NCBI GenBank assembly: GCA_029907355.1
Contig: JARYLZ010000001.1
Location: forward strand, 64,522-128,521
Direction of reading: 5' to 3'
Origin: Bacteroidota bacterium
GTDB taxonomy: Bacteria > Bacteroidota > Ignavibacteria > SZUA-365
DNA: 64,000 bases
Of the stretch, positions 12,337 through 38,180 are shown one piece after another (within the stretch, counting starts at the first letter, position 1; every line of letters starts with the position of its first letter). Under the pieces are notes generated by a model. It was not told where the DNA came from and ran no database searches. It worked only from the letters and a program-made list of their open reading frames with translations. Position numbers and translations under genes: made by a program.

Positions 12337-12519
12337 GAAACGAATGAAAATGCCGAGTGAAAGTTACGAAACTTTCAAAAGGCTTCAAGCCGGGCCACAA
12401 TGATCTTGCGACAGTGGAACGAAGAAAAGGGTCGGAGCAGAACTCCGGCCCTTGTCCGCCGGGACCGTGTGTGGACGATACCCGGCCGTGCCCCGGCCAG
12501 GTGGGCGGCCACGAGCGCG

Positions 12520-12969
12520 TCAATCCCAAATCGCCGCGAATTGCTGCGCGCCGCAAAGGAAACAGTTCTCACCCTCGAAGTGGACGATGATTTCCACCAA
12601 TCCCTTCTTACCGGGAACGTTGTGTACGGCAAAACCGATATGACCGCTGACAGCCGGTCGTTCGTCAGAAACGGTGACCGTATTCACACCAAGCAATGGT
12701 TTGGGAACTTTATAGGCTTTATGCGTCCTGAAATTCACAAGAAGAGCGTGATCTGCCATCTTCGAAATGAGTATCACTTCATCGGCATTTTTCATGTTAC
12801 GGTAGGCGAACACCGGCAACCGAAGCCCTTCTGGACTCATGACCTGACAATGGATAGAACGAAAAAGAGTAGCAGTTCTTTTCCCTTGTTGAGCATGGGA
12901 AAACTGAATGGTTATGAATCCAAGAAGAATTATCACCGACCACATTCTCAATATGGATCCGGTTTTCAT
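12520..12969 (-). CDS. small hypothetical secreted protein
   Basis: 149-aa ORF with a clear signal peptide (MKTGSILRMWSVIILLGFITIQFSHAQQ). I prefer it over the overlapping + strand ORF 12400-12999, which has no protein-like features. Confidence 0.45.
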   Translation of the reverse strand: MKTGSILRMWSVIILLGFITIQFSHAQQGKRTATLFRSIHCQVMSPEGLRLPVFAYRNMKNADEVILISKMADHALLVNFRTHKAYKVPKPLLGVNTVTVSDERPAVSGHIGFAVHNVPGKKGLVEIIVHFEGENCFLCGAQQFAAIWD

Positions 12970-13172
12970 AAGACTGCCCCTTTTTCTTTATTGACTTAGT
13001 TTTATGATAGTGAAAATATTTCAATGCATACTATATGGCAATAGAACTTTTTGTATATGTTGCAATATTTGCATTGACTTATTCTTAGAAAAATGGGACC
13101 TAGTTCTTCTCCAAAATGGACGTGAATTTTTTCACTAAATATCTTTGTAAACGCTTCCTATGAAAAAACATG

Positions 13173-13220: not shown

Positions 13221-16200
13221 TTAACGTTTGATAATAGGTCGTGCGAGAACCCTTTCACCGACATAGAGATAGATAATGTAGAAACCACCGGGGACGTCAC
13301 CGATTCCGATTTGCTTGATATAGGGACCTTGTACCCTCTCTTCTTGAGATTCATGAACCGAACGCCCAAGCAAATCACTGACAATGAGACGCACTTTTGA
13401 AGGGAAAGGAAGCTGAATCTCTACTGTAAAGAGCCCTTCATTCGGGTCCGGATATACCGAAAATGACTCAATCCCCAAATTATTTTCGATGCTGGTGGCA
13501 CGAAATTCGAATGGGGCTGACATAGAGAAACAACTGTCCTCATTCCAAACGGCGACGGAGTATTGTCCGTTCCTGGTGGGATTGTGCGTCCTTTGTGTCG
13601 CTCCCGTAATCGGTGCACTGCTGAAATACCACTGATACCGATACGCAGGGGTTGAAATCAATGTGTTTCCTATCTGCGTGATGACCGGGGTGGGGGGGGT
13701 CGGTTTGACGCGGACTTCGACAACATCGGATTCACCCACGCAACCATACTGATTCGTCACACGAACGTTGTACAAACCGCTTTGGGAAACGGTTATCCGC
13801 CTCGTTCTAGCGCCGGTTGACCATAAGTATGATTGATATCCCGATCCGGCATCGAGTTCAACGCTTCCTCCATCACAGAAATTTAAGGGTCCACCGGCTT
13901 TTATTTGTGGAACAGGTGTTGAGTGTCGAGTTACTGTAATCGGGGTTGATGTACCTATACACCCATTCGCATTCGTCACCGTCACGGAATATGTGCCTGA
14001 GGTTTTCACGGTGATTTTCCTGGTAATGGCGCCGGTGGACCATAGATAGGTAGCATACCCCGCACCGGCGTCAAGAACGACACTGTCGCCGGGGCAGAAT
14101 GATGTGGGTCCGCTTGCAGAGATAACCGGCTGCGGTTTCGAATACACCGTTACGGAAACGGGGGCTGATGTCCCCTGGCATCCGTTCGCATCCCGAACGG
14201 TGACAAGGTAATTCCCCGCGGACTTGACGGTGATCACTCGCGTCGTCCGACCGTTCGACCATTGATATGACGAGTACCCTCCTCCTGCATCCAGTCTGAC
14301 ACTGTCACCCTGGCAAAACTCTGTGGGACCGAGGGGTGTAATATGAGGCATAGGGAGAGGATTTACCGTTACCGTAACGGGATTCGACCTACCAACGCAA
14401 CCGGAATCCGTCCATACTGCCACGTAATAGGACCCTCCTTGATTGACCTTTATTGTTCTGGTATTCGCGCCATTTGACCAAAGATAGCGTGCATAGCCGC
14501 CTCCGGCATCAAGGGTGACCTCGTTCCCCTCACAAAATCTCAATGGGCCGCTTGCCGTAATCCTCGGTGTGGGAATTGAGTTCACGGTAATGTGGATCGG
14601 CGGGGATGTCGCTGAACACCCGTTATCATCCATGACGGTCACCGTGTAATCGCCGGGTGATTTTACCGTGATAAATCTGCTCGTCGCCCCCGTAGACCAG
14701 AGATAACCACCATAGAGACCGTACTTGTCTGCATCGAGGACTATACTGTCACCCTCGCAAAAACTTACCGGTCCCTTGGCGGTGATGCGCGGTTGTGGGA
14801 GCGGGTACACTGTGACGGTATATGAGGGGGATGTTTTCCTGCATCCGTTATACCCTGTCACGGTCACGAAGTATGTCCCCGGTTTCGTCACCGTGATTCG
14901 CCGTCCCCCCATTCCGTTCGACCACAAAAAGCTATCCCCGTAAGAAGAATCCGCTTCGAACGTCACGCTCCCCCCCGCACAGAAAGTCAATGGACCACTG
15001 ACGTTGACATGTGCGCGTGGGAGTGGCATGACGACGACTCGAACGGCGGGGGATTCCCCTCTGCATCCCTGAAGTGTGTTGACGTGCACTTTGTAGAGAC
15101 CGGGTTCCCGCACGACGATACTCTGGCTCGTGTCGATGGCGATCGTGTCACGATACCACAGGTAACCGGAATAGAGACGTGCGGAATCGATTGAAAGAAC
15201 GACACTGTCGTATTCGCAGAAGGTCAGTGGTCCGCTCGCACGAATAATTGGCATGGGGGGCGCGATGACATCCACGCGGACATCGTCGGTTTCGACGCAC
15301 CCATTGGCGTCGGTGACGGTCAATGTATACGTGGTCGGGAAAAACGGTCGTGCCCATGTACGTGGTGCCGTCGAATCGCTCAGTCCGCCTACGGGACTCC
15401 ATTTATATGTATACGGTGGGGTGCCCCCTGTAGCATTTGATCCGATCTGCACGCTGTCGCCACGACATATGGAAATATCCCTCGTGTCTTTGAGGCGGGG
15501 CCACGGGAGAAGCGCGATGAAAACGCTGTCGACCGACTTGCATCCGTTGGCGTCTGTCACCGTGACATAGTACCTCGTGGGTTCCAGGGGGCGCACAAGG
15601 GGTCGTGCGACACGGTTGGAACCGACGAAGTATTTCAACGGTGTCCATTCATATTTGTACGGGGGTTTCCCCCCTGTTGCCGTATCACCGATCTGCGTTA
15701 ACTCGTTCCTGCATACAATCTGGTCCGTTCCAGCTTCCGCAACAGGAGGTTGATTGACAACCACCGTAATCGTGTCCGAGGCAGTACAACCTTTTAGGTT
15801 CTTCACGGTGAGAACATAAACGGTTGTGCTTTGTGGAGAAGCCTTGGGATTCATGATCGTAGGATCCGTCAATCCCGTTGACGGTTGCCAGAGATAGGTA
15901 AACGGCCCGGCTTGGTTGCTGCCGACAGTCGCGGAAAGTTGGATGGAATCGCCGAGGCAGATGGACCGGTCATCTCCAGCATGAACGGTGAAATCGACGA
16001 TGGAAATGGTTACCGAATCGATACCCGAACAGCCATAGGCGTCGCGGGCAACAACAGTGTACGTCGTCGTTACCTGCGGTTTGGCATAGGGCCGCGCGAT
16101 CAAAGGATCGCTGAGTCCCTGGGCAGGTGTCCAGAAATACGTGTAGGGTGGGGTCCCTCCGGTTGCCACCGAACCGATCTGAACGCTGTCGCCTGAGCAG

Positions 16201-19200
16201 ATGAGCGAATCGACACCAGCCGAGACGACCGGTGTATTTTCAACGTAAACAACTACGGTGTCGGAAACTGTATTCGATGCTGCATCCGTCACGGTGAGTA
16301 CATACGTACAAGTTGTCGTCGGCGAAGCGGTTGGACGCATGGCGGTCGTGTCGCTTAATCCGGTTGCAGGGAACCATCGAAACGAGTATGGTGGTATCCC
16401 GCACACCGCGGTGTCCCCGATAACATCGGAACTTCCTTTGCAGAGATGGATATCGGGTCCTGCGAGTGCCGTAAAGCTCGTGTAGACGGAAACGTTGACC
16501 TGATCGGTGTCGGAACACCCCTGGCTGTCACGGACGACCAGTGTGTATTTCGTAGTCGATAACGGGAACGCAAGGGGGCGGGCGACATTCGTTTGGCTTA
16601 ATCCAATGGCAGGTGACCATGTATACTGGAGTGGACCGATACCGAAATTGCCGCCTCCGCCGAGACGAACTGTATCACCGGCGCAAAGGACACGATCAGT
16701 CCCCGCGTCAGCGATGACACGGTTTACCATGACAAGAACGGAGTCCACGGTACTGCAGCCGTTTGCATCCGTTACGGTAACCGTGTACCTCGTGGAGACT
16801 GGCGGTGATGCGATCGTCACTGAGTCGGTCGTCGAACTGAGACCGCTCGGCGGATTCCACGCGTAAGTATAAGGTGGGGTACCCCCGCTTGCCGAATGGC
16901 CTATTGCGACACTGCCACCACGACAAATCATAGTATCCGGACCCGCATGGAGTATGGGAAGGGCGAACACGAAAACCGTTACGGAATCCGTGGCAGTGCA
17001 GTTGTATGCATCCGTAATGGTAAGATGATACGTCGTTGTCACCGCTGGGAATGCAAGGGGGGTTGCGGAGGTTGAATCGTCGAGCGTCGTGTTGGGCCTC
17101 CAGATATAACGCAGCGGTCTGGCTCCCCCAACGGCTTGACCACCGATGCGGACACCGGACCCACGACAAATCGCAGTGTCACGACCTGCATCCGCAAACA
17201 GCGGGGATGCGACATTTACCCGGACGGTATCGGAGACACCGTGGCAACCGATCCCGTCTGTCACTCTCACTGCATACGAACCGGTCGTGTCAACGGTAAT
17301 CGTTCTTGTGGTCTCGAGCGTTGACCAGAGATAACTGGTGTATCCCGGACCCGCATCCAGGACCACTCGTCCACCTGGACAGAGATTCGTCGGTCCGCTG
17401 GCGGTTATGAGCGGCTTTACATCGCAAATTTTCGTGATGAAACCATCCACGGTTCCACCGTTTACATTTTGGACTGCGGAAAGAACGGGGAAATCGGTGC
17501 TCGAGGTCCAGCCGCCGAAAACGACATTCCCACTGTATTGTGCCATGATCGCATTCGCAGCGTCATCGCCATTCCCGCCAAAAAAGGTGGACCAGATCCG
17601 CCCTCCCTGCGGATTGAACTTTACGATGAAAGCATCCGTCGATCCGTTTTTCGAAGGCTGGATGGCATCCTGTGTAACGGGAAAATTTGTACTCGCAGTT
17701 TGGCCTGTGAAAGCAATGTTGCCATGGAAATCCGTGCTTACCCCGCTCGCATACTCGTCCTGGTTCCCCCCGTAAAATGTTGCCCATTCCCGCGCACCTG
17801 TCGGACTGAAAACGCAGAGAAATGCTTCTTGACCACTCATCAGGTATGGACGGAACGCATTCGCCACAGGGAAATTCGCACTCTCCGTCCTCCCGACCAT
17901 GACGGGACGCTGGAACTTGTCGACGGCGAGCCCGTGTGCGATATCGAAGGCGCTTCCCCCGTAATACGTCGCCCAGAGACGAGTGCCGTCGGAAGCAAGT
18001 TTCACGAGGAATGCATCTCCCTGCCCGGCCTGGGTGTTCTGCAAACATCCTACAGACACCGGGAAATTCGTGCTGTTCGTGTTCCCTGCAAAGTACACGT
18101 TGCCGCTCGAATCACAGCCCACTGCCCGAGCGACATCTCCCATCATCCCTCCATAATATGTCGTCCAAATTTGCGTTCCCGTCCCGCTGAATTTGGCAAC
18201 GAATGCATCACCGACACCTGCGATCACGGTCTGGTAAGCCCCAGGAGTGACAGGGAAATTTGCGCTGGTCGTCACACCAGTTACCAGAATATTTCCACTC
18301 CGGTCCGTCGCCACCGCATACGCGTTGTCGTCGGCTCCGCCTCCCAGGTAAGTCGCCCACTGTAAAGACCCTAATGCATCGAAACACAAAAGGAAACCGT
18401 CATACATTCCCCCATTCTGTTCCTGGAATGCTCCCGCTGTTGTGGGGAATGATGTACTGTTCGTTTCACCTGCTACGATGATGTTCCCGTTCCCTGCCAC
18501 TGCAACCGACGTTGCGGCATCATTACCGGTTCCCCCGTAATAGGTTGCCCAGAGACGCGTTCCTGAAGAATTGAATTTCACGACGAAAGCATCAAGACTG
18601 CCAGCGTTTATGGATTGGACCGCACCCGCGGTGACCGGCAAATTCGTGCTGTATGTGAATCCGCATACAATGACGTTCCCTCCTGCGTCGGTTGTAACGG
18701 ATGTTATCCGATCGCCGTTCGAGCCGCCGTAATACGTCGACCAGTGAACGGTTGGGTCGATCACGAGAGGGAATCGTCCATCATAGGTACCAACGTCGAA
18801 ATGGATTTCTCTGCCATCCACACGGAAGGAGGAAGGGACCGTCGGCATACCGGAAGCGTAGGGAGAGGACAAATCGGGAGGTTGATAACAGAAAGGTCGT
18901 TCTTCTTTCAAGCATCCGAATGGATTCTCCACGATGAGATCCCTCTCTTCTCCGATAGATAGGGATTTTGCTCCCGCAACTCGAAGCTTGATATCCTCCG
19001 GGCGTCCACGAGGATGAACTACAAACTCATACTTGATTCCTGTATCGGTAATTCTAAAGATCAGGTCGATCCCCTCGTAGAGATTTTCATAAATGATGCA
19101 TCGGTATTCATGCGCCATGAGATTGAGAGCACCACCCCTATGGTACATGACCGGTGTTTCCACTTTGTCGACGCCTCGCACGGATACATCCTGGTTTGCA

Positions 19201-19604
19201 TCAACGAACTCGATATCCATCCTATATGATTCGCATGATTTCGCGAAGGAGTGACCATAGTCGGCCTTGGGTATCTCACCCGTTCCCTTTTCGAAGTTCG
19301 GTTTGAGAAAAACATAGCTGACATGCTTCCTCGTAAAGAAGAGACTCGTCGAACCGTAAGAGACCGTAAAGAGAACGTCTTCTTGAACGGAACCGTCTAC
19401 ATTGTAAATCTGACCTTTGTTCTCGACGAAACCTCTCACGGGATTCGAACTCATCCGCCTAATGAAAGCCTCCGGAAAAAGAACTTTTCCCGATGGATAA
19501 TCGACGGAGGACTTTTCGAAATTTCTCGCGATTGCGATCCGGTTAGCGGTTAGAAAAGTCCCGCTCATCAGTAGCACAGGAAAAATCGAGCGCAGGAAAT
19601 TCAT
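13221..19604 (-). CDS. giant T9SS cargo surface protein with SBBP beta-propeller repeats, SprB-type repeats and Ig-like repeats
   Basis: 2127-aa ORF with a signal peptide. Repeated GN..V.G.T.S.NFPV blocks are SBBP-type beta-propeller units. Repeated C.GDSV.IG..A.GGTPPYTY.W blocks are SprB-type. About 8 Ig-like units of roughly 78 aa (GP..FC.GDSV.LDAG.GY..YLWSTG...ITV...G.Y.V.V.D.NGC) follow. The C-terminal roughly 80 aa looks like a T9SS CTD. Confidence 0.9.
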   Translation of the reverse strand: MNFLRSIFPVLLMSGTFLTANRIAIARNFEKSSVDYPSGKVLFPEAFIRRMSSNPVRGFVENKGQIYNVDGSVQEDVLFTVSYGSTSLFFTRKHVSYVFLKPNFEKGTGEIPKADYGHSFAKSCESYRMDIEFVDANQDVSVRGVDKVETPVMYHRGGALNLMAHEYRCIIYENLYEGIDLIFRITDTGIKYEFVVHPRGRPEDIKLRVAGAKSLSIGEERDLIVENPFGCLKEERPFCYQPPDLSSPYASGMPTVPSSFRVDGREIHFDVGTYDGRFPLVIDPTVHWSTYYGGSNGDRITSVTTDAGGNVIVCGFTYSTNLPVTAGAVQSINAGSLDAFVVKFNSSGTRLWATYYGGTGNDAATSVAVAGNGNIIVAGETNSTSFPTTAGAFQEQNGGMYDGFLLCFDALGSLQWATYLGGGADDNAYAVATDRSGNILVTGVTTSANFPVTPGAYQTVIAGVGDAFVAKFSGTGTQIWTTYYGGMMGDVARAVGCDSSGNVYFAGNTNSTNFPVSVGCLQNTQAGQGDAFLVKLASDGTRLWATYYGGSAFDIAHGLAVDKFQRPVMVGRTESANFPVANAFRPYLMSGQEAFLCVFSPTGAREWATFYGGNQDEYASGVSTDFHGNIAFTGQTASTNFPVTQDAIQPSKNGSTDAFIVKFNPQGGRIWSTFFGGNGDDAANAIMAQYSGNVVFGGWTSSTDFPVLSAVQNVNGGTVDGFITKICDVKPLITASGPTNLCPGGRVVLDAGPGYTSYLWSTLETTRTITVDTTGSYAVRVTDGIGCHGVSDTVRVNVASPLFADAGRDTAICRGSGVRIGGQAVGGARPLRYIWRPNTTLDDSTSATPLAFPAVTTTYHLTITDAYNCTATDSVTVFVFALPILHAGPDTMICRGGSVAIGHSASGGTPPYTYAWNPPSGLSSTTDSVTIASPPVSTRYTVTVTDANGCSTVDSVLVMVNRVIADAGTDRVLCAGDTVRLGGGGNFGIGPLQYTWSPAIGLSQTNVARPLAFPLSTTKYTLVVRDSQGCSDTDQVNVSVYTSFTALAGPDIHLCKGSSDVIGDTAVCGIPPYSFRWFPATGLSDTTAMRPTASPTTTCTYVLTVTDAASNTVSDTVVVYVENTPVVSAGVDSLICSGDSVQIGSVATGGTPPYTYFWTPAQGLSDPLIARPYAKPQVTTTYTVVARDAYGCSGIDSVTISIVDFTVHAGDDRSICLGDSIQLSATVGSNQAGPFTYLWQPSTGLTDPTIMNPKASPQSTTVYVLTVKNLKGCTASDTITVVVNQPPVAEAGTDQIVCRNELTQIGDTATGGKPPYKYEWTPLKYFVGSNRVARPLVRPLEPTRYYVTVTDANGCKSVDSVFIALLPWPRLKDTRDISICRGDSVQIGSNATGGTPPYTYKWSPVGGLSDSTAPRTWARPFFPTTYTLTVTDANGCVETDDVRVDVIAPPMPIIRASGPLTFCEYDSVVLSIDSARLYSGYLWYRDTIAIDTSQSIVVREPGLYKVHVNTLQGCRGESPAVRVVVMPLPRAHVNVSGPLTFCAGGSVTFEADSSYGDSFLWSNGMGGRRITVTKPGTYFVTVTGYNGCRKTSPSYTVTVYPLPQPRITAKGPVSFCEGDSIVLDADKYGLYGGYLWSTGATSRFITVKSPGDYTVTVMDDNGCSATSPPIHITVNSIPTPRITASGPLRFCEGNEVTLDAGGGYARYLWSNGANTRTIKVNQGGSYYVAVWTDSGCVGRSNPVTVTVNPLPMPHITPLGPTEFCQGDSVRLDAGGGYSSYQWSNGRTTRVITVKSAGNYLVTVRDANGCQGTSAPVSVTVYSKPQPVISASGPTSFCPGDSVVLDAGAGYATYLWSTGAITRKITVKTSGTYSVTVTNANGCIGTSTPITVTRHSTPVPQIKAGGPLNFCDGGSVELDAGSGYQSYLWSTGARTRRITVSQSGLYNVRVTNQYGCVGESDVVEVRVKPTPPTPVITQIGNTLISTPAYRYQWYFSSAPITGATQRTHNPTRNGQYSVAVWNEDSCFSMSAPFEFRATSIENNLGIESFSVYPDPNEGLFTVEIQLPFPSKVRLIVSDLLGRSVHESQEERVQGPYIKQIGIGDVPGGFYIIYLYVGERVLARPIIKR
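13560..15260 (-). repeat. array of about 8 tandem Ig-like coding repeats (roughly 234 nt each) inside the 2127-aa gene
   Basis: The translated repeats are diverged at roughly 50-60% aa identity. Coordinates are approximate, derived from residue positions. Confidence 0.5.
15260..17450 (-). repeat. array of about 9 SprB-type coding repeats (roughly 85-100 aa each) inside the 2127-aa gene
   Basis: The recurring motif is AG.D..IC.G.SV.IG..A.GG.PPY.Y.W.P..GLSD. Boundaries are approximate. Confidence 0.45.
17450..18758 (-). repeat. SBBP-type beta-propeller coding repeats (about 7 blades) inside the 2127-aa gene
   Basis: The recurring motif is YYGG...D.A..V..D..GN....G.T.S.NFPVT.GA.Q. Boundaries are approximate. 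Confidence 0.45.
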
Positions 19605-20161
19605 GATAACCTCATCCCCAGAATTCGTTCTTCTTCGGGTGGATTATAACACGATGAAACTATCAGGAACATAACGTTTTAGAAAGAAAGTATCCAGACA
19701 TCGCGTGTCGATGAAGAATGTAATCTTGTTTCGCCGAAATCTTTGAGAAACAAGTATTTCGAAGACAGGACATCTGGCGCATGAGCGGTTCTCTGCTTCT
19801 ACGTACATGTTGATTTTCATGGACGGACAATCACAGCAAATTACACGAATGGATCTCATTGTTCTGAATGATGCGAGCCCATCATCTCATCATAAAGTAT
19901 TAGTATTGACTTTTTGAAGAAATAGTGTAGGTTTATTTCACTTTCATATACCGCACCTGAATCAGAACCTTTGAAGAAAGGGAAATACTCTCGTGCAGAG
20001 AGAAATTCTCTTTTTCCCCTTTTTATGCCGAGGTTCATATGAAAATCTGTTGCTTGCATGTTCATTCATGGTTTTCCGCTTTCTTCGGCACATGAGTCTA
20101 TCGATATCAAGAGCCGCAGAAAATTTATTGCTGTCAGATAGAATTTTATGGAGGGGTTACC
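19605..20161. promoter_or_regulatory. AT-rich divergent intergenic region between the two giant surface-protein genes, presumed to hold promoters for both
   Basis: This is 557 nt with no credible ORF. Start codons flank it on opposite strands. A GGAGGGG RBS lies 6 nt before the ATG at 20162. Confidence 0.35.
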
Positions 20162-23100
20162 ATGCGTTGTCGGGACATTCTCATAGAAATCTCTTTTCTC
20201 CTAATCTGTTTCGCCACGGATTCATTTACCCAAATCGGGATAGCGGTTCAAATCGATCCATCACCATCCCCGTATATCTCCGACTGGCGTTCGAATCCGA
20301 ACACGGTTCGATTCATCGTCACGAACCCGACTTCGATGACGTACGAAGTACGTTTCGTTGGGTACATAGAAGGCGAACGGCGAGGCCGAATTGCTGAAAC
20401 CAAAATTGATGCTGCAATCCAACCCGTTATTATTCCACCTGGTACGTCGAGTTTCAATGGTGTCGATGCCCACCTCGTAGAAGAAGGGGTGGTTCGATAC
20501 ATCGGTTCCTCTCGGGCAGAAACCGAGCGCACGGGTCGTATCCCCGAAGACAGGTACCGTCTTTGCATTGAGATTGTCTCCTATAAGAATCCTCAACAAA
20601 AATTGTCTCCTGAAACCTGCACCTCTTTTGAGATCAAGATACTATCGCCGCCCTCTCTTATCTCTCCCGCCGATAAAACCAGCATTACTCTTCTCCCGAC
20701 ATTTCAATGGTCTGCCGTGCCTATGGGCATCGGTGTCTTCGCTTCCTACGAACTTACCGTCGTGCGCCTCGAACAAGGGCAAATGAATGTTGCCCATGCA
20801 ATGGAAACGAATGTTCCTTTCCTCCAACGTGAAACGACACTGCCTCTCTATACCTGCCTGCCCTCAGACCCACAATTCACAGCAGGAACCTACGCTTGGC
20901 GGGTACGCGCTTTCGATCCCAACAATCGCTACACATTCAACAATCAGGGGAAGAGCGAAATTTGGTCCTTCACGTATCGCGAAGATGTTCGGATAACCGG
21001 GACCGTTCCGAGAAGACCTTCCCCTTCGGCTGGACTTGATTTATCGAGGCCGAATTTTCTCTATACCGGACTGACACGTATTCGGGGCACACTGAAGGTG
21101 ACATTCCTAAAGGGAATGATTCCGCCGCCGAAAAGTATCATCATCCCCCCACCGGGTAAGGGACAATTACCCCTGCCTGATCATCCGACCCAGCAACAGC
21201 TTCCTCAACAACAGACTCAACCACAAGCAGGCACTCTCCAAGCTCAAGGGGTTTCACTCGCCGCTTCCCTGAGTAAACCCGCACAAGCCCTCGGTGGATT
21301 ACATCTCAAGCTGTATAAGTGTTATCAACCACATCCCACGACAGGTTGCTTCGATCAGGCCAGCTTTACAGTCAACGGCAAATTATACATGGGAAAAACC
21401 CTCGTCGCAACGACGGTCACTCAGGAAGATGGTTCGTTCGAGTTCACGTTCTTCGCTTCCGATTCGACAGGTCGTGTTGCGAAAAATACTTCTATCCGAT
21501 GCGGCTCATCTACTTCGGAGTTTAGCAGTATCATCACGGGGGATTTCTATGGATTTTACACAATCGAAGTGACAGACCCTCATCTCTGTAGCCCATCCGA
21601 CCGCTTTATCGTCCAGCCGCTCGAGAACGCCGACGTCGGAACACTGTACTCCCTAGTCCGGTGGTACACCGTTACTATTCGTACGAACCACTACGAAGTG
21701 AAAGCGGGATCGGAATCCGTCATATATCCATTGAGCGGGATAAAAGTCCGTGTCATGCGCGTTTCTCGCCCGTACGATATCCCCTCGAATGAGGGAGAAA
21801 TTTCCGAGCCATTGATGGGCTCGATGACGGTCATCGCGGAGGGTATCACCAATGCCATGGGCGAGGTGTCTTTCAAGTATTTGGTGAAAAGCGTTGGGCC
21901 AAATGACCGATACCTCCTACGCGCGGAAACCGCCGAAGGCTCGGAATATTACTATTATAGCGCCTTTGAAAGCTTTAGGAATTCGTTCCTCTTGGACGAG
22001 AAGGACGACGCCGGCAATGGACTGTTTTTCGATTATGCGGTGCTAAACGAGGATTACGATCCCACAAAAATGAAAGCGACAGAGATCGTGCCAATGATCC
22101 CGAAGCCCCCGCGAATTCTCGGGAGCGTATATCGAAAAGACAATCCTAACTCCCCGGTTGCTGGTGCATGCATACTTCTCTACCGTACAGTAGGGACAAC
22201 CAGGTATGTGGAACGTATTCAATGGACCGACGCATCAGGCAAATTCTGTTTCGAAAATATCGAACCGGCACAGGATACATCGCACACGAGCGACGTGTAT
22301 TATCAACTGAAAATCATCAAATCTGGCTTCAAGGGATTACTGTTCCCAGAGCGAAAAGAGGACGCCTATCGTCCTACGATCGGAAGGCAAAAAATCACTC
22401 CGAAAATTCTCCTCGAACCGGATATGATCGTGAGCGGAAAAATCGTCGATGAATTAGGAAGACCTGTGAAAGCGTGGGTGCAAATTGATGATGGTGAAAA
22501 AGTGCATACCGTGACGAAATTCGTCCCGAAACGGATATCGTCTCAGCCTACCGATATGAACATAGATGACAATGGCATCGTGCGGTGTATACGGAAAATC
22601 CAGGGAACCCAGCAACAAGAACTGCACATCACATATACTGCACCGCGCGCTGCCCTCACTCAAAAATCAAGATTTCGGTTGACTGCTTCCGGCATACTCG
22701 TTGACACGGAAGAGGAATTCCGCTCCGCTTATGCCCCGCAACCGAATAAGGAAGCACGCGTGATTATCACGCCGGATGACCTCGCCACGTGGTTCCCTGA
22801 AACGTTGCGCGTTTGCTGCGGCGGTATGGCATATTTCGGGGAATTTGTCGTTTCCCTCAAACTCCGTCGTCTGGCAGTAGTGGCAGTCAAGATGCATTCA
22901 GAGCCGCCGACTCGGCAGCGTACGGAAGGGGGCCTCCAGACAGGCGGAGAACGCACGAGAACTAAGATCACCTCTCAATACATGCAGCAAATCACTAGCC
23001 AGACTATGGCCGGTGGCGGGTTACGCCAGGCTCTCCTGTTCACCGGTGGCGTGATGCAACTCATTCAGCCTGAACTGTTATTCCTTCCTACGGAGATCGT

Positions 23101-26035
23101 GAAGGATGCCGTCATCAGGGTCAACGGGATGGAACCGGACTCCATCGACAATGAGGGTGTACATTATTTCGCATGGCAATCTATAGGAGCGAACACGGAA
23201 ATCCATGTGGAAGGCCCGCCGGGCTCGAATTTCGTCCCGAGAGATATTACGGGGATTTCCACACCCGTCAGCCGCACATGGACACTCTACCCGGCACTTT
23301 TATCTCAGGGGGGAAAATTAGCCGGAACAGTTCGCGTGGGTAGCGTTCCAATCCCTAATGCACGTGTCATGCTCTTCGATAATCCATCCGATCCCACTCC
23401 ACTTCAGACAACAACAAACAGCGAAGGAAAATATGAACTTCCGGGTGTACCACTCGGTCTGCACACTTTCCGGGCGACGAAATCGAGCAGCCAATACATC
23501 GGTGACACAGTTTCCACCATCGTGAAAACGTCAGAAACCACGATGTTGGATTTCCAGCTTACCCTTTACAATGACATGGATATTACACATCTCCTCGGTT
23601 TTCCAATCGAGGTGAGCGCGTTGGACTCGTCAATGGGATCCATTCGGATTTCTGGGAATTTCTGCAATCTGCCGGCCAACGCCCATTTTTCTGTCGACAC
23701 AGCGAAGACGATCCTCCACTTCTCCGATATCGTGATCATACCTTCGACAGAAACGAATGTAAACGGTATCCCCCTTGCTCAGCCGTCGTCGATTCCACTG
23801 ATCACGGATGTCAACACGTTCGGAGTGAAAGCGTTTGGGCTCTTCAAGGCTAACCAATTCGACCCCATGAACGGGGTACGTGTTTCACTGGCAGAAGGAC
23901 GCGGAGAAATAACTGGCACTATCCGAATAGACCCGGCATCATTCACCGTCAGTCCCGGCTCGATTGATTTTGACCAGTCCTGGTTATACCTCGCTCCACC
24001 GCAACCGGAAGGGCCGCTCACACTCTCATCGATAACGTCCGATGCTTCGGTACCCCTTGCAATCCCCCATGGCTACCGTGTCGTGAATGAAAGTGGGCAA
24101 GGTCTCGAATATACTCTCTACGATTTCCCTGCACGTGGTGATCCTGTACTCTCATACCTTCTCGACGATACCCTTTCTCTGCGGACGACGGTCCACACGG
24201 ATATCATCGGAACGGTGAACCCTGATCTGGCAATCGATCTCGGTAACCTTCGAATTCACCATGCTTCTATCGAACCGATTTTATCGACAAAGGTTACGAC
24301 AATCGGTCTTGAGGGAGAATGGAAACTCATCGCGAAATCATGGCGGATAGACAATAATGGGTTTACACTTGACAGTGGTTACGTTGACACTGGGCCGATA
24401 TATATCCGATTTACTGGCATAAAAGTATTTCCCGATCACTTGGATTTCGGGGTATTCAATCTCACGGAACTCCCCCTAGCGGGGATTACCACGATGACGG
24501 TCACAGGGAAGGCTGTTTTCGGTATCGACGGCGGTGTGGGGAGCTGGGCACTGTCTGTCGTACCTCAGACGGGGGAAGATATTTGCGGCTGGGCGAATGC
24601 TCTCCCAGGAATGGCTTCCAACGACAAGATCCGATTCAATAATTTCTTTATCCGCGCGAATGACTCGAAAGGATTCACCCTAGCGGGAGGGAACCAAGTT
24701 ACCTTCCATAAGGTAGCGAAATGGAATCTCAACCATTTCTACGTCGCACCCAATCTCATTCAGTTGTCGGGCAATCTCGACCTCCAGATCCCGAATTTCC
24801 CCCCATTCAATTACCCGGTCTCCTACTCGATCATTGACAATGAATTGAAATGCGTGATTGTCCCGATCGATCAAACGATTGCCGTGAACGGCGTCGAGAT
24901 TGTATTCATCGCAAGCGGAACGAACCCGCAATACTGGGATAACACCGGTTTTCACAGCAGCGTTTACGTTCAGGAGCAAGGCGCCTTCCGCTTACGGAGC
25001 ATGCTTCACCGGACATTGCAGAAAACCAATATCATCGTCAACCAGGGCGAGGAAACATACATTGGGGACGATCACACGGCGAAATTCACGAACGTGACGG
25101 GGGAAATGCTCGTCGAAAATGACGAATGGACGCTGTTCTGGTATGAAGGCGACCTTCAGAATTCGAACCAAGGGGGTCGCATCCATTTCGTTGTCGAAGG
25201 GGAGATTGTCGCGAACAACCAAGAGATCGGTGTCGACAAAATCGAAACACCCTTCGGTGATATCCGCATCGTGTACAATTTCCAGAAGCAACGCCTCGAG
25301 GGGAATCTCGATATCGACTGCGACCTCGGGGGAACGAAAGTCAAAGGCGGCGGAAATCTTCTCATCAGCGGGACGGGCAAAGGATGGTACTTCCGATTCT
25401 ACATCACGTTCAAACTACCTACACCCACCGTTGAGGGTTCTGCAGTGTTCATTTGCGGGAATTGGCAGATGGAACAAGAGCAGTTGGATGATTTCGCACA
25501 ATATTCCTACAAGAACAAACCGCTCCCGGCACAGTTCCACAACCTCCGCGGTTTCTTTTTCGAAGGGACCGTTATGGTCCAGCCATCGGTTTTTTGCCCG
25601 AATTTCGAGTTCAACTTCATTCTCGTCTCTGCCTATATGGAATGCATGGTCGGTGCGAACGCTCGGTTCGGAATGAACTTCGGACCTGAGTATACAACCT
25701 TTTTCATCGCCATAAGAGGGATCATTCATCTCGAAGCCGGGGTTGGACTCTCCGTCGTTGTCTTCTGCGCAGGTTTAACCCTCGGCATCGACATCGAACC
25801 GAACATCGAAGGAGTTTTCCAAACAAATGGGGATTGGTACGTAAAAGGGCAACTGCCGATTATCATTTACGGATCATGCTACTGCGGAGGAGGTTTCTGT
25901 GACAGTCAATGCGAAGGAGATCTTTGCGTGAAGGAGGAGGCGAGCGGGAGTATCGAAATGGGCGCCGAAGCGTATTATGGTTCGAAGGATGGAAAGGATG
26001 AGCAATACTTTAAATTTTACTTCAAGAGCGAATAA
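20162..26035 (+). CDS. giant secreted hypothetical protein (1957 aa) with N-terminal two-domain module, Pro/Gln-rich linker, carboxypeptidase-regulatory-like beta-sandwich domains and Cys-rich C-terminus
   Basis: Signal peptide and strong RBS. Residues about 40-285 form a module that is duplicated in the downstream 314-aa gene. The linker reads PPPKSIIIPPPGKGQLPLPDHPTQQQLPQQQTQPQ. Segments such as GSVYRKDNPNSPVAGACILLYR...DASGKFCFENIEP and GTVRVGSVPIPNARVMLFDN...NSEGKYELPGVPLG look like CarboxypepD_reg-like folds. The C-terminus contains CYCGGGFCDSQCEGDLC. I see no T9SS CTD. Confidence 0.85.
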   Translation: MRCRDILIEISFLLICFATDSFTQIGIAVQIDPSPSPYISDWRSNPNTVRFIVTNPTSMTYEVRFVGYIEGERRGRIAETKIDAAIQPVIIPPGTSSFNGVDAHLVEEGVVRYIGSSRAETERTGRIPEDRYRLCIEIVSYKNPQQKLSPETCTSFEIKILSPPSLISPADKTSITLLPTFQWSAVPMGIGVFASYELTVVRLEQGQMNVAHAMETNVPFLQRETTLPLYTCLPSDPQFTAGTYAWRVRAFDPNNRYTFNNQGKSEIWSFTYREDVRITGTVPRRPSPSAGLDLSRPNFLYTGLTRIRGTLKVTFLKGMIPPPKSIIIPPPGKGQLPLPDHPTQQQLPQQQTQPQAGTLQAQGVSLAASLSKPAQALGGLHLKLYKCYQPHPTTGCFDQASFTVNGKLYMGKTLVATTVTQEDGSFEFTFFASDSTGRVAKNTSIRCGSSTSEFSSIITGDFYGFYTIEVTDPHLCSPSDRFIVQPLENADVGTLYSLVRWYTVTIRTNHYEVKAGSESVIYPLSGIKVRVMRVSRPYDIPSNEGEISEPLMGSMTVIAEGITNAMGEVSFKYLVKSVGPNDRYLLRAETAEGSEYYYYSAFESFRNSFLLDEKDDAGNGLFFDYAVLNEDYDPTKMKATEIVPMIPKPPRILGSVYRKDNPNSPVAGACILLYRTVGTTRYVERIQWTDASGKFCFENIEPAQDTSHTSDVYYQLKIIKSGFKGLLFPERKEDAYRPTIGRQKITPKILLEPDMIVSGKIVDELGRPVKAWVQIDDGEKVHTVTKFVPKRISSQPTDMNIDDNGIVRCIRKIQGTQQQELHITYTAPRAALTQKSRFRLTASGILVDTEEEFRSAYAPQPNKEARVIITPDDLATWFPETLRVCCGGMAYFGEFVVSLKLRRLAVVAVKMHSEPPTRQRTEGGLQTGGERTRTKITSQYMQQITSQTMAGGGLRQALLFTGGVMQLIQPELLFLPTEIVKDAVIRVNGMEPDSIDNEGVHYFAWQSIGANTEIHVEGPPGSNFVPRDITGISTPVSRTWTLYPALLSQGGKLAGTVRVGSVPIPNARVMLFDNPSDPTPLQTTTNSEGKYELPGVPLGLHTFRATKSSSQYIGDTVSTIVKTSETTMLDFQLTLYNDMDITHLLGFPIEVSALDSSMGSIRISGNFCNLPANAHFSVDTAKTILHFSDIVIIPSTETNVNGIPLAQPSSIPLITDVNTFGVKAFGLFKANQFDPMNGVRVSLAEGRGEITGTIRIDPASFTVSPGSIDFDQSWLYLAPPQPEGPLTLSSITSDASVPLAIPHGYRVVNESGQGLEYTLYDFPARGDPVLSYLLDDTLSLRTTVHTDIIGTVNPDLAIDLGNLRIHHASIEPILSTKVTTIGLEGEWKLIAKSWRIDNNGFTLDSGYVDTGPIYIRFTGIKVFPDHLDFGVFNLTELPLAGITTMTVTGKAVFGIDGGVGSWALSVVPQTGEDICGWANALPGMASNDKIRFNNFFIRANDSKGFTLAGGNQVTFHKVAKWNLNHFYVAPNLIQLSGNLDLQIPNFPPFNYPVSYSIIDNELKCVIVPIDQTIAVNGVEIVFIASGTNPQYWDNTGFHSSVYVQEQGAFRLRSMLHRTLQKTNIIVNQGEETYIGDDHTAKFTNVTGEMLVENDEWTLFWYEGDLQNSNQGGRIHFVVEGEIVANNQEIGVDKIETPFGDIRIVYNFQKQRLEGNLDIDCDLGGTKVKGGGNLLISGTGKGWYFRFYITFKLPTPTVEGSAVFICGNWQMEQEQLDDFAQYSYKNKPLPAQFHNLRGFFFEGTVMVQPSVFCPNFEFNFILVSAYMECMVGANARFGMNFGPEYTTFFIAIRGIIHLEAGVGLSVVVFCAGLTLGIDIEPNIEGVFQTNGDWYVKGQLPIIIYGSCYCGGGFCDSQCEGDLCVKEEASGSIEMGAEAYYGSKDGKDEQYFKFYFKSE

Positions 26036-26131
26036 CTTTCATCCCGGTTTATCTCGGGTATAGATCTTCCCATTCGCCGCGAACAGCACCCGCTTAACAT
26101 CACAAATGTTCAATACCTCACACAAGAAATA

Positions 26132-27076
26132 ATGGTTCTCAAGACAAGGCCGAAAAACATGAACCGACGCATCCACATCCTCACTGTCGTCAGCATTTGG
26201 TCTTTCGTCATTACAACGGCGTCCGCGCAGCTCTCTCTCGTCGTGCAATTCGAACCCTTACCCTCTCCTTATATCTCCGATTGGCGCTCCCACCCTAACA
26301 CGATCCGATTCATTCTCACAAACCCAACAGGCACACCTGTTACCGGTCGGCTCAAAGCTTATATCGAAGGCGATATCCGAGGTCGTGTGGCGGAAACCAA
26401 ACTCAACGCGAAGATTCAACCGATCACTGTACCACCGGGGACATCGACTTTCAATGCTGTTGATGCTCGATTCATCGAAGAAGGCGCGATCCGTTATATC
26501 GGACCGACGAAAGATGAAACGAAAAGAACAGGTCGATTACCAGAAGACCATTTTCGCATTTGTGCACAGTTTGTCGCGTACCATGATCCATATTCTCCGC
26601 TCTCGAACGAATCCTGCGCGACGTTCGAAATCCATTTCCTCCTTCCTCCCTCGTTGATCACTCCCAGCGACACAGCCATTGTTCAATCTCTTCCAGTTTT
26701 CCAATGGTCATTCGTTCCCCTTTTTATGGGTGAATTCACGAAATACGAATTGAAAATCGTTGAACTGGAACCCGGTCAAAAGAACCCGCAAGACGCGATT
26801 TTAACGAACATTCCTCTTCTCGTACGTGAAACAGATTTGCCGATGTACGCTTATCTCCCTTCCGATCCACCTCTTGAAAAAGGGAAAACATACGCTTGGC
26901 GGGTTCAAGCATTTCATCCTGACTCGAGATTTGTATTCGCGAAGAGAGGTCTCAGCGAAACGTGGAGTTTCACCTACATGCCCACCATTCCCCCGTCTAT
27001 CAAAACAGAAGAGCAAACTGGCGGAAATACAGGTACCTCTGATGAAATATGGGAAAGAAAGCGTCCTTCAAATTAA
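26132..27076 (+). CDS. secreted hypothetical protein, standalone paralogue of the N-terminal module of the 1957-aa protein
   Basis: Signal peptide (TTASAQ). It aligns to the giant protein over about 280 aa: PSPYISDWRS.PNT.RFI.TNPT, AETK..A.IQP...PPGTS.FN.VDA, RYIG......TGR.PED, P.FQWS.VP, YAWRV.AF.P, and ETWSFTY all match. The C-terminal half of the module looks FN3-like. Confidence 0.8.
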   Translation: MVLKTRPKNMNRRIHILTVVSIWSFVITTASAQLSLVVQFEPLPSPYISDWRSHPNTIRFILTNPTGTPVTGRLKAYIEGDIRGRVAETKLNAKIQPITVPPGTSTFNAVDARFIEEGAIRYIGPTKDETKRTGRLPEDHFRICAQFVAYHDPYSPLSNESCATFEIHFLLPPSLITPSDTAIVQSLPVFQWSFVPLFMGEFTKYELKIVELEPGQKNPQDAILTNIPLLVRETDLPMYAYLPSDPPLEKGKTYAWRVQAFHPDSRFVFAKRGLSETWSFTYMPTIPPSIKTEEQTGGNTGTSDEIWERKRPSN

Positions 27077-27306
27077 CGTCCTCAATGATTTCTCCTTTCT
27101 CTGGGCTCGAATCAATTTTTGCAGTCACGCTATCTAAAAGAAATCCATTTTAGGGTCCGCGAGTACCTATCGGTGCATGGAAGCGCATAGAATCCATTCA
27201 TGAATAGACAGTCCTCTCCATCCGATAATAGAAAGACATCATAGCAGGAATGAAAATCCGCTGGATTCAACTCGTATAGGTAAATAGAACTTCTCGAAAG
27301 AAACGG

Positions 27307-29391
27307 ATGATGCATATGTATCCCTCAGAGATTTTCCCATTCTTGCGAATGATACCAATGAAGTCGCTCCCCTTTCATTCAATGTGGACGATTCTCTTCA
27401 TTCTGGCAATGCAGGTTCCTATCACACAATGCCAGCAACGCAAATCTGTTCACGCGGGGCCCCAAGGCATCTGGGTTGATCTCGGCGAATACGTTCTGCC
27501 GGCACGCATCGAAGGTAATGCCTGCCAATTTTACATCGTCGAACGAAAGGCGATCGGCGAGAATAGATGGGAAACCGTAGCAAAAGTCCAGGGTCCGACG
27601 TCACAACACGAATTCGAGAAAGCAGTCCAAGCACAGACATATCGATTCCCCGAGTTGCGCACGCTAACAATACAGTACTCCGAAATCTGGAAATCGCTTG
27701 AAAAAAAGAGAACTATTTCCTCTATCGGATTCCTCGGCCAGTCGCTCCCTATCCAAGCAGCCCTTGGAACTCGGTGGTACGATACAACGGCGGAGAAAGG
27801 GAAGGTCTACCATTACCAGGTGAGCCGAGTTGCTGAAGACGGAATGACAACAGACCGCGTGACGAGCGAACCTATCTCATATCCCCAGCCTGCAGCGACA
27901 CCACGACTCCTCGTGTATCGTCATTACTCGGATGCGTCCGCCGTCAACGTCGTCTGGACACCCGGGAAACAAAAGAACATCGGATCGTTCAAAATATACA
28001 GGCGAGAAGGTGTCAGTGGCCCATTCGAACATTTGCCCGTCAATGTTAAGGACACCTGCTGCATTGTCAGCGCAGGATTCATGTCACGAGGGGACAGCCT
28101 TTTCTGCACGATCATCGACCGGACGATAAAAACTGGAACTGTTTATCAATACTACATTAAGCCGATGGACATCTTTCAGAACGCGGGGATGGAAAGCGAC
28201 ACCGCGACGGTTTACTCATTCGATATGATCCATGTCCCTTTGCCGCAACAATTCCACATCCGCTCGATCGATTCCGTCGGTATCCAGATACGCTGGACTC
28301 TTTATGATACTAGCGCTGTCCATGGAGTGATCATCGAGCGAAGCAGGGATTTCGACACTGGTTATGTAGAACTTTTCACTGCATCACCACGTGATACGGC
28401 ATTCACTGACATAACCGTTACCCCGATGGAGCGCTATTATTACCGCCTCAAGATAGTCGGACCGGGGGGAATCGTCTCAGGGCAGAGCGCAAAAATCATG
28501 GGACATTTCCGCAGCAATATTGAACCGACACCCCCTGAGGGTATCCGAGCGGAAGGTATCCACGGCGGAATCCGCGTCTCATGGTTCTCTGACACAGAAC
28601 AACTTCTCGAAGGGTATTACGTGTACCGCTCGGAAGGCTTGATTGATACCATGGTGCAAATCTCCACACTTTTGCCTCCCGGCACGACACAATTCCTCGA
28701 TACACTCGGCATGCAGGCAGGCCGTATATATGCCTACTGCCTTCGGAGTGTAAGCTCAAGTCATATTCCCAGCGTACCGTCGGACACAGTTACCGCCCAA
28801 CCAATCATACCCATGGGAGTCTCCACACCTATGGGACTTGCCGCATACGCGGACGAGCATGCCATTCACCTGACGTGGCAAGGACAGAAGGAACGCGATC
28901 CCTCGTTGGACGGTTTCCGTGTTTATCGCCGTGAAGGGACAAGCCGTTGGAAGACTTTAAATAGCACGCTTCTACCCCCTCAGCAAAACTTTTTCGACGA
29001 TAATACCGCTGAGCCTGGGAAGAAATATTTCTACGCGGTACAGGCTTATTCGGTCGAAGGCGATAGCAGTAGCTGGAGTATGATCGCGAGTACAATAATC
29101 CCACTGCCTCGCCTATATCCACCTGGGAACCTTACTGCGAAAGTCGAGAAGAACAATATTCGATTGTCTTGGGATGAAATTGTTCAACCGAATGCAACGG
29201 GATTCAAAGTATACAAGTACACTAGGGGTTCTAAACCACATCCTATAGCGACGCTTCCCTTAACCCAACGGGAGTACGTCGATATGAATCCTGGATCGGG
29301 ATCCCCCATTTTCTATTTCGTCACGACAATTGGGAAATACGACACGGAAAGCGCAGGTGGGAATGAAATTTCAATACGACGAATGCCGTGA
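27307..29391 (+). CDS. secreted protein with about 6-7 tandem FN3-like domains
   Basis: The probable start is the internal Met at about 27346 (MIPMKSLPFHSMWTILFILAMQVPITQC is a signal peptide). The recurring pattern is W......GF.VYR.EG......L and YYY..AV.-type beta-sandwich signatures. Confidence 0.8.
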   Translation: MMHMYPSEIFPFLRMIPMKSLPFHSMWTILFILAMQVPITQCQQRKSVHAGPQGIWVDLGEYVLPARIEGNACQFYIVERKAIGENRWETVAKVQGPTSQHEFEKAVQAQTYRFPELRTLTIQYSEIWKSLEKKRTISSIGFLGQSLPIQAALGTRWYDTTAEKGKVYHYQVSRVAEDGMTTDRVTSEPISYPQPAATPRLLVYRHYSDASAVNVVWTPGKQKNIGSFKIYRREGVSGPFEHLPVNVKDTCCIVSAGFMSRGDSLFCTIIDRTIKTGTVYQYYIKPMDIFQNAGMESDTATVYSFDMIHVPLPQQFHIRSIDSVGIQIRWTLYDTSAVHGVIIERSRDFDTGYVELFTASPRDTAFTDITVTPMERYYYRLKIVGPGGIVSGQSAKIMGHFRSNIEPTPPEGIRAEGIHGGIRVSWFSDTEQLLEGYYVYRSEGLIDTMVQISTLLPPGTTQFLDTLGMQAGRIYAYCLRSVSSSHIPSVPSDTVTAQPIIPMGVSTPMGLAAYADEHAIHLTWQGQKERDPSLDGFRVYRREGTSRWKTLNSTLLPPQQNFFDDNTAEPGKKYFYAVQAYSVEGDSSSWSMIASTIIPLPRLYPPGNLTAKVEKNNIRLSWDEIVQPNATGFKVYKYTRGSKPHPIATLPLTQREYVDMNPGSGSPIFYFVTTIGKYDTESAGGNEISIRRMP

Positions 29392-33005: not shown

Positions 33006-33141
33006 GCGAACAGCGAGACAATTAATGAGTACAGGAAAGAGATCGTGTTTATTAAGATTCTGGAAAACAAGGGAATGGGACCATATATTGCATCGAGAAA
33101 GATAAATCTGGGAACGCGGATGAACACCCAAAAGATATTAT

Positions 33142-35790: not shown

Positions 35791-36110
35791 TGGAAGGGAA
35801 ATAAAAGTTGTTGATGGGAATGCGCTTCAACGCGTAAGGGAAAGAGATGATAAGATTCGCACTTTAATTTGAAAGAAAAAATAGTGACAAGAACTCTGCC
35901 AAGCACATAGTGGTAAGAGAATAATAATTCTATCTCGATGGGTTTGGATTCGTTCTCTATTCTCTATGACCCATCATGTCAATATGTGGTAAGAAAATCA
36001 TATCCATCTCGATAAAAAATAGCATGGATAAATAGCCGACAAATCAACAACTATTACCTTATGCTACAAAAAAACAATAAGATAATACATGTTTCACATG
36101 GAACCCAAAA

Positions 36111-37967: not shown

Positions 37968-38177
37968 TCATGGCACTGGATCGTGACCGTACCCTCCCCA
38001 GGGGGCACAATGGAGAATTCTTTTCAAACTTAAAAAAACTCCTTTTAACGCACCGTGTTTGTTAATCGCTTCGATTGCATAGGAAGAACACGTTGGTATG
38101 TACCTGCATGAAGATGGAAAAAGGGGCGAAAGAACCCCTTGATAGACATGTATGATAAATATTAATGCTTTTTTCAT
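37968..38177 (-). CDS. yidD: membrane protein insertion efficiency factor YidD
   Basis: 69 aa. [35 protein letters not shown] is the YidD signature. The gene abuts the yidC start. Confidence 0.85.
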
Positions 38178-38180
38178 CCG

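Follow-up and report, generated by a model that had tools for sequence, protein, structure and literature searches.

An atypical, barrel-less copy of a conserved barrel-giant-FN3 gene cassette in an Ignavibacteria genome

Proteins headed by a TANFOR domain were described by Jana, Salomon and Bosis in 2020 as a class of polymorphic toxins, of which approximately 87% carry Sec signals and whose gene neighbourhoods are statistically enriched in SprB, Fn3, PKD and Por_Secre_tail genes (PMC7073777). Export via a secretion system of type IX (T9SS) was hypothesised in the same work for these giants and toxins on neighbourhood statistics only. A Tannerella forsythia TANFOR protein was detected in an outer-membrane-vesicle proteome, which is compatible with an envelope location. 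In this work we analyse a window of 64,000 nucleotides (the whole stretch of DNA considered here, positions 64,522 to 128,521 of contig JARYLZ010000001.1 from a Bacteroidota bacterium of the class Ignavibacteria), and in particular a locus which encodes, on the minus strand, a 2127-aa T9SS-type cargo protein and, on the plus strand, a 1957-aa giant with a TANFOR-like head, a 314-aa protein related to that head and a 694-aa protein of fibronectin type III (FN3) repeats. The three genes on the plus strand represent an atypical version of a gene cassette that is widespread in Bacteroidota, Ignavibacteria and Chlorobiota, to which the giant and the FN3 protein belong and whose third member is an outer-membrane barrel, not the cargo. 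The class of TANFOR-headed giants was already known, the near-invariant barrel-giant-FN3 cassette is unstudied, and it is this cassette, outside the window, that is the more interesting result.

The conserved unit is formed by an outer-membrane beta-barrel of ~570 aa, a giant of ~2000 aa and a protein of ~690 aa with six FN3 repeats. Of the related genome loci, 15 include the giant's 5' end, and 14 of these have a gene of ~570 aa directly upstream of it on the same strand; the FN3 partner lies directly downstream and co-oriented in each of the 18 loci that reach the giant's 3' end. A metagenome scan, seeded with distant members of the barrel family (a 12-sequence subset), gave 80 loci: a head-bearing giant directly follows the barrel in 61 of the 62 with at least 600 nt downstream (gaps of -127 to +85 nt), and where the giant is complete and more flanking sequence is available, it is followed by the FN3 partner in 41 of 42 cases. 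Pedobacter frigiditerrae and a JGI contig also have this trio, made up of homologous partners; the barrels show 29% identity (E 2e-76 across their entire length in Pedobacter, and E 1e-46 across about 75% of it in the JGI contig), and the matches between the FN3 partners have E 1e-15 and 1e-12, respectively. The barrel gene's place directly upstream of the giant, seen at nearly all of the ~80 examinable junctions, offers a concrete and testable alternative to T9SS export.

The barrel family has at least 287 members, all annotated as hypothetical and essentially free of Pfam matches (the sole one being Porin_4, PF13609, on the member P0053). The AlphaFold2 model of the barrel, built from 66 sequences, is confident, having a predicted local distance difference test score (pLDDT) of 85.6 and a predicted template modelling score (pTM) of 0.73. 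In it, a signal helix at the N-terminus precedes about 24-26 antiparallel strands, and there is neither a POTRA nor a plug domain. Additionally, 58 of the 72 family members end in the C-terminal Phe that is the usual terminus of outer-membrane proteins.

This gene order can also be seen in the supplementary table of the TANFOR study (PMC7073777), even though its text does not discuss these upstream and downstream neighbours. In this table the Tannerella forsythia TANFOR gene has an upstream gene of 548 aa, overlapping by 17 nt, and a downstream protein of 665-683 aa; Dyadobacter and Salibacter have the same neighbour arrangement, and the TANFOR-deaminase toxin of Chitinophaga pinensis has an upstream gene of 581 aa. 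Other TANFOR loci in the table have an SprB-CTD cargo upstream instead (CTD, C-terminal domain), and those of Flavobacteriia (Cellulophaga, Aquimarina and Tenacibaculum) have an upstream PKD-repeat lipoprotein of ~450 aa and a downstream signal-peptide protein of ~750-800 aa (PMC7073777, Supplemental Data 1). This points to three or more types of locus that encode TANFOR-headed proteins.

The features of the locus in the window are as follows, with positions counted from the first letter of the window.

13221-19604, minus strand: T9SS-type cargo, 2127 aa, with a signal peptide, DUF7948, SBBP beta-propeller repeats, Ig_7/PKD/SprB-like repeats and a type-A CTD (SprB and CTD scores below cutoff)
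19605-20161: divergent intergenic region of 557 nt, AT-rich by its guanine-cytosine (GC) content, taking the place of the ~570-aa barrel gene of related loci
20162-26035, plus strand: giant with TANFOR-like head, 1957 aa (NCBI MDH7514305.1), supported by full-length homologues and their alignment
20231-20977, plus strand: N-terminal module of the giant, aa 24-272, divergent TANFOR domain and FN3-like domain
23318-23563, plus strand: CarboxypepD_reg domain of the giant (PF13620), a transthyretin-like beta-sandwich, aa 1053-1134, in the middle stalk region
23567-26032, plus strand: conserved all-beta C-terminal region of the giant, aa 1136-1957, the last ~270 aa starting at about 25199
26132-27076, plus strand: stand-alone head paralogue, 314 aa (MDH7514306.1, QHI48_00320), with a signal peptide, TANFOR-like and FN3-like domains and a short tail
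27307-29391, plus strand: FN3 partner, 694 aa, with a signal peptide and six FN3-like repeats, the downstream member of the cassette

These four open reading frames (ORFs) had been proposed in a preceding sequence-only reading of the window, and our ORF check returned exactly the same lengths and coordinates. That reading's description of the products as devoid of enzymatic signatures agrees with our searches of Pfam and NCBIfam, which gave no enzymatic domain in any of the four, and the AT-rich character that it attributed to the 557-nt divergent spacer is borne out by a GC content of 0.395, the window as a whole having 0.512. The N-termini of all four products resemble signal peptides. A scan for sigma-70 promoters and terminators between the plus-strand genes gave counts at shuffle level, with a model that contains no Bacteroidota promoters. 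The current database labels of the genes of the locus are "carboxypeptidase-like regulatory domain-containing protein" and "hypothetical protein", neither of which conveys the features described here.

The N-terminal module shared by the giant and the 314-aa protein consists of a divergent TANFOR domain (TIGR02542) and, after it, an FN3-like domain. The direct match is weak: TIGR02542 scores 17.7 bits (E 0.0026) on aa 1-313 of the giant, covering only model positions 77-144 and falling short of the curated cutoff of 67 bits, and the 314-aa paralogue has no match to it at E<=0.01. Nevertheless, the homology is secure by transitivity, since the module matches the N-terminus of P0030, a protein named TANFOR domain-containing by JGI and scoring 43 bits on TIGR02542, with 29% identity over 277 aa (BLASTP, E 4e-29), and since all ten giants found downstream of barrels in related cassettes match the whole TIGR02542 model with 26-58 bits. 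In its second half, the module bears a weak likeness to FN3. A word-indexed homologue search with the 314-aa protein retrieved only the protein itself and one other, and an exhaustive phmmer search was needed; with the same query, it gave 3587 representative clusters carrying the module (1457 at E<=1e-10), in nearly every case at residues ~10-300, in proteins of up to 4000 aa. This spread and this N-terminal position identify the module as the head of a very large superfamily. The earlier suggestion that the locus matches no recognised system is consequently untenable, because the shared module is a divergent TANFOR and a neighbourhood of SprB, PKD, Fn3 and CTD genes has been published for such heads (PMC7073777); these enriched types are present here as the PKD/Ig_7, weak SprB and CTD elements of the cargo and as the FN3 protein downstream.

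In the alignment of the giants, the module begins with an invariant Gln24, directly after the signal peptide. A Gln at this position fits the Bacteroidetes "Q-rule" for substrates of signal peptidase I. The head is ~50% identical even between subfamilies in which the remaining sequence is about 33% identical or less. PDB sequence searches with profiles of the giant family and of the head gave no usable match.

The giant has 18 full-length homologues with 43-47% identity, and full-length homologues occur in about 20 metagenome-assembled genomes (MAGs) of Bacteroidota, Ignavibacteria and Chlorobiota. After the head come a Pro/Gln-rich linker, a series of beta-sandwich domains and an 822-aa C-terminal region; CarboxypepD_reg (48.8 bits, against a cutoff of 32.3) is the sole Pfam domain above cutoff, with weak SdrD_B and SpaA matches among the sandwiches. 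Conservation within the close family is highest in the C-terminal 822 aa (49-54% identity), and a hidden Markov model (HMM) of this region recognises 23 of the 44 complete giants from distant cassettes. The AlphaFold2 model of the region (13 sequences, pLDDT 71, pTM 0.38) is moderate and all-beta, and in its last ~270 residues antiparallel strands of 13-22 residues present one face that is almost purely hydrophobic. The fold similarities of this sheet are to outer-membrane barrels and lipid-binding sheets, with Foldseek TM-scores of 0.10-0.14. Based on this model, the C-terminal region is probably an amphipathic beta-meander contacting membrane or lipid.

Given the TANFOR homology, the giant could be thought of as a polymorphic toxin of this class, exported by T9SS and acting as an antibacterial or anti-eukaryotic effector, with the SprB/PKD/CTD cargo helping to bring it through this system. 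Besides the head itself, this explanation can draw on the presence of the enriched neighbour types (SprB, PKD, Fn3 and Por_Secre_tail), on the orthologous cargo-giant pairing that is kept in the independent MAG L005, and on an S8 protease with a 33-bit CTD next door, which makes it probable that the organism has a T9SS. However, Pfam and NCBIfam give no toxin domain in the giant, and no immunity-like small gene is found downstream of it, where the 314-aa head and the FN3 partner come next. Moreover, the C-terminal 820 aa are the best conserved part of the family and not a variable tip, which means that this subfamily of giants is not polymorphic at the tip. The three plus-strand products had been said to lack a T9SS CTD, and indeed neither type A (TIGR04183) nor type B (TIGR04131) is detected in any of them at E<=0.01 with Pfam and NCBIfam; a cargo homologue is, in addition, missing from 14 of the 15 genome loci and from all 80 metagenome loci. 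T9SS export of this giant thus finds no support in the protein, which has no CTD, nor in a conserved cargo neighbour, and we consider the toxin explanation quite unlikely.

The 694-aa protein had been described as a tandem-FN3 protein, and six repeats could be mapped in it: one is a Pfam fn3 above cutoff, PDB matches are to contactin FN3 domains, and the rest were found with an internal-repeat HMM. It is 44% identical over 649 aa to the partner of the related locus L001.

In Pfam and NCBIfam the cargo protein matches DUF7948 (153 bits), SBBP (81 bits) and Ig_7/PKD, and its N-terminus looks like a signal peptide. Its SprB repeats are sub-threshold (26.8 bits, against a curated cutoff of 28), as is its CTD (21.2 against 27 bits for PF18962, and 20.5 against 23 for TIGR04183). 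The CTD match is nevertheless full-length and placed at the extreme C-terminus, the region aligns with CTD-bearing proteins of L001, and the last 80 residues contain the classical type-A motifs YPDP..G.F.V, D..GR.V and GFY..Y. Of the composition proposed from the sequence, therefore, the SBBP and Ig-type repeats hold, the SprB repeats and the CTD reach only sub-threshold scores, and the CTD motifs are present. An orthologue of the cargo, 57% identical, occupies the same divergent position in L005, which is one of the 15 related genome loci, and no homologue is found in the other 14 or in any of the 80 metagenome loci. Since the cargo-giant arrangement also exists in this independent MAG, it is not an assembly artefact. 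The cargo is hence a neighbour of a kind often found near TANFOR genes and not a fixed subunit of the cassette.

These distributions bear on the proposal of the sequence-only reading, in which the four genes would encode a single surface assembly of an adhesin, gliding or S-layer-like kind, with common regulation from the divergent promoter region. The divergent layout around the AT-rich spacer, the same cargo-giant-FN3 arrangement in L005, the signal-peptide-like N-termini of all four products and the statistical enrichment of SprB/CTD genes near TANFOR genes are all in its favour, whereas almost none of the related cassettes has the cargo, the 314-aa gene occurs in the window only, and the true third partner, the barrel, is missing here. 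The functional linkage that had been claimed stands for the giant and the FN3 protein (18 of 18 genome and 41 of 42 metagenome loci), and falls for the cargo (1 of 15 and none of 80) and for the 314-aa gene (nowhere else). A four-gene assembly is thus not what the comparison returns, with a cargo that is no regular member, a 314-aa gene found only here and a third member that lies outside the window, and we regard the proposal as unlikely.

The 314-aa product (305 aa long at NCBI) had been called a paralogue of the N-terminus of the giant, which its alignment with residues 6-272 confirms (146 of 268 residues identical, 54%, E 6e-99). Of the 56 columns without variation in 24 giants, 53 are unchanged in it, and the other three have F to L, V to I and D to H. 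Compared with the head of the giant, the gene is 62, 75 and 36% identical at codon positions 1, 2 and 3, the third positions being near saturation, and this pattern indicates purifying selection on the 314-aa gene. A recent tandem duplication was considered as its origin and rejected, as the product is 51% identical to the head of its own giant and 45-57% to all others, and the DNA similarity, only 67% over 261 nt, also disfavours it. No separate head gene was found in any other of about 100 loci, genome and metagenome together, and the gene is a lineage-specific addition which, with its flanking spacers of 96 and 230 nt, interrupts the giant-FN3 junction by 1.27 kb.

Both the window and L005 lack the adjacent barrel, and the cargo gene takes the upstream side in divergent orientation. 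Within the 64-kb window tblastn finds no barrel homologue, the sole weak match of the family (E 0.027) being to an unrelated 547-aa ORF at 39009-40652. The same MAG does carry a member of the barrel family (P0068, MDH7514946.1, QHI48_03585), on another contig of 51 kb with the same locus-tag prefix. The missing barrel could be taken as a sign of decay, i.e. its loss inactivated the system and the 314-aa ORF is the remnant of a truncated second giant. The empty canonical barrel position, the 1.27-kb break in a junction that normally spans -91 to about +130 nt and the existence of split giants in L013 and L029 are what this explanation would account for. Against it, all three plus-strand ORFs are intact and full length, and the 314-aa product shows the invariant columns and codon-position pattern given above. 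Furthermore, blastx detects no relic of barrel or giant coding sequence in the three spacers (including that of 557 nt), L005 combines the same barrel-less layout with intact genes, and a barrel-family member exists elsewhere in the MAG. Decay is, in our view, very unlikely.

The reading that we favour, with moderate confidence, is that the locus is an atypical copy of a cassette whose barrel exports or anchors the giant via its head, the barrel being provided here in trans. All three cassette products would cross the inner membrane by Sec (as their signal peptides and the Gln at +1 suggest), after which the wide barrel would export the giant, or anchor it at the outer membrane, by engaging the conserved N-terminal head, in a manner comparable to that of two-partner secretion or plug-and-barrel complexes. 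The head is the candidate for the engaged element, being what stays conserved across subfamilies whose remainder has diverged. The FN3 protein would be an accessory or stalk component. In this subfamily the giant would be a structural surface or envelope protein, rather than a polymorphic toxin, exported independently of a T9SS CTD and ending in a conserved amphipathic beta-sheet domain that probably touches membrane or lipid; in this genome the cassette would use the barrel encoded in trans, for which the free 314-aa head might act as another client, as a cap or as a competitor. The homology of the members, the near-invariant gene order, the fold of the barrel, the absence of CTD and toxin domains, the lack of a barrel gene in the window together with a family member on another contig of the MAG, and the selection on the 314-aa head are the parts of this reading that the data support directly.

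Several points weigh against it. The Flavobacteriia and SprB-CTD neighbourhoods mean that the TANFOR head is not universally tied to the barrel family, and the barrel-less state of the window and of L005 makes adjacency of the barrel dispensable. The barrel in trans (QHI48_03585) may serve a second cassette of its own. The model of the giant's C-terminal region is only moderate (by the pLDDT, pTM and Foldseek values given above), and it is doubtful that the giant has a true transmembrane barrel, given that, unlike the barrels, only 7 of 43 giants, examined as a control, end in an aromatic residue. The barrel-giant adjacency fits a shared envelope complex with some other function equally well, transport or anchoring being what we infer from it, and the enrichment of SprB/CTD genes near TANFOR genes leaves a link to T9SS open (PMC7073777).

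More generally, the cassette might constitute an unrecognised, T9SS-independent export or anchoring pathway of the Fibrobacteres-Chlorobi-Bacteroidetes (FCB) group, in which a barrel of usher size recognises the head and serves structural giants and TANFOR toxins alike. We put this forward tentatively, as a possibility that is still doubtful. If true, the window would show the barrel acting in trans and the 314-aa head as a self-sufficient export or docking unit. The window contains what can be seen as natural experiments, namely a cassette without an adjacent barrel (if working) and a free head kept under selection, and assays of export or docking would find in such a free-standing head a convenient minimal substrate.

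Some cassette members depart from the usual forms. L093 is the sole barrel-seeded locus without a head-bearing ORF after the barrel, and L102 (9950-14507) is the sole one with a short head-bearing protein (964 aa), with no FN3 partner within 7 kb. In L013 (1817-7540) and L029 (3623-10682) the giant is split into a head-bearing ORF of ~530-560 aa and a separate ORF for the rest, which could reflect a frameshift, a sequencing error or genuine two-polypeptide forms, and which bears on the function of a free head. A distant subfamily of giants (L021, L022 and L025) has about 33% identity over the first 40% and a C-terminal region ~90 aa longer; its members end in ...TPTFEFLSF or ...FEFLGLNI, and most members of the close subfamily in ...YFKFYFK. 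The MAG JAEYUG01 has two cassettes of this distant subfamily.

Around the locus lie housekeeping genes (LepA, two signal peptidases, HemN, SMC, YidC and RecQ), the SMC gene being convergent with the FN3 partner that precedes it. Close to the cargo gene, the S8 subtilase (9310-12336, minus strand) has Sortilin/BNR repeats and a T9SS CTD of 33 bits, above threshold. Between the two, a 199-aa ORF (12400-12999, plus strand) has no family match and has a counterpart in L005 with 40% identity, so that the synteny with L005 reaches beyond the cargo gene. A block at 33001-39000 has a GC content of 0.35-0.41, against 0.51 for the window, and contains a GH2-like 882-aa gene (33142-35790, minus strand) and the insertase YidC (36111-37967, minus strand); a low-GC block with yidC is unusual and could be a compositional island or a sign of a chimeric MAG contig. 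The 547-aa ORF at 39009-40652 (minus strand), which has no Pfam or NCBIfam match, lies directly downstream of a co-oriented Bac_transf sugar transferase gene (40649-42058) that it overlaps by 4 nt. Its weak tblastn similarity (E 0.027) to the barrel family hints that it too may encode an outer-membrane barrel, serving for instance in polysaccharide export. A 998-aa fusion (42263-45259, minus strand) joins the N- and C-terminal domains of a GH3 glycosidase to a beta-lactamase-fold domain, resembling a NagZ-like and AmpH/PBP-like fusion of cell-wall recycling.

Among the known systems that pair a giant surface protein with a barrel, the SprB-SprF type (a T9SS type-B CTD cargo with a PorP/SprF-like barrel) shares with the cassette the position of the giant's gene beside that of its cognate barrel. 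However, our giant has no type-B CTD, its conserved element is N-terminal and not C-terminal, and the cassette barrel is about twice the size of PorP/SprF. Membership was rejected on the lack of matches to TIGR04131 and PorP_SprF.

Chaperone-usher systems (FimD, PapC) differ in having N-terminal, plug and C-terminal usher domains, whereas the cassette partner is barrel-only and has no usher Pfam match. They also depend on a PapD-like chaperone, a gene for which was found in none of the loci checked, and their clients are polymerising pilins, in contrast to one giant polypeptide. With a barrel-only model, and a similarity limited to the pore, membership in this group was rejected too.

Two-partner secretion and contact-dependent inhibition systems (TpsB-TpsA, CdiB-CdiA) are closer in organisation: a gene for an outer-membrane protein (~570 aa) is followed by that of a giant exoprotein, a conserved domain of ~250-300 aa comes after the signal peptide, and some members of the superfamily have polymorphic C-terminal toxins and immunity genes. 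Nevertheless, the cassette barrel, with its about 24-26 strands and no POTRA, is not an Omp85 protein and has no ShlB Pfam match; the giant has no Haemagg_act/TPS domain and is made of Ig, FN3 and transthyretin-like sandwiches instead of a beta-helix, and there is an obligatory third gene, that of the FN3 protein. The strand number and the lack of POTRA and Haemagg_act domains led us to reject membership.

The plug-and-barrel complexes (LptD-LptE, MtrB-MtrA) offer large barrels of 24-26 strands able to house a partner domain, and MtrB and LptD are among the structural matches both for the barrel and for the C-terminal sheet of the giant. The likeness is at the level of the fold, with no sequence homology, and a head or tail placed inside the barrel would be an analogy only.

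The closest described system is the TANFOR class itself, which likewise comprises giant Sec-dependent Bacteroidota proteins with the homologous domain right after the signal peptide, followed by an FN3-like domain. CarboxypepD_reg occurs in the body of the giant as in the 3078-aa protein of T. forsythia; Fn3, PKD, SprB and CTD genes are common neighbours, and many canonical members have an upstream gene of ~550-590 aa and a downstream gene of ~665 aa. Our giant differs in its score on the TANFOR model (17.7 against 67 bits), in its conserved C-terminus and in having neither a variable toxin nor an immunity gene, and the window differs in its free-standing head gene and in the non-adjacent barrel gene. 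The locus is, in summary, a non-toxin, barrel-less and head-duplicated member of the TANFOR-headed giant protein cassettes.

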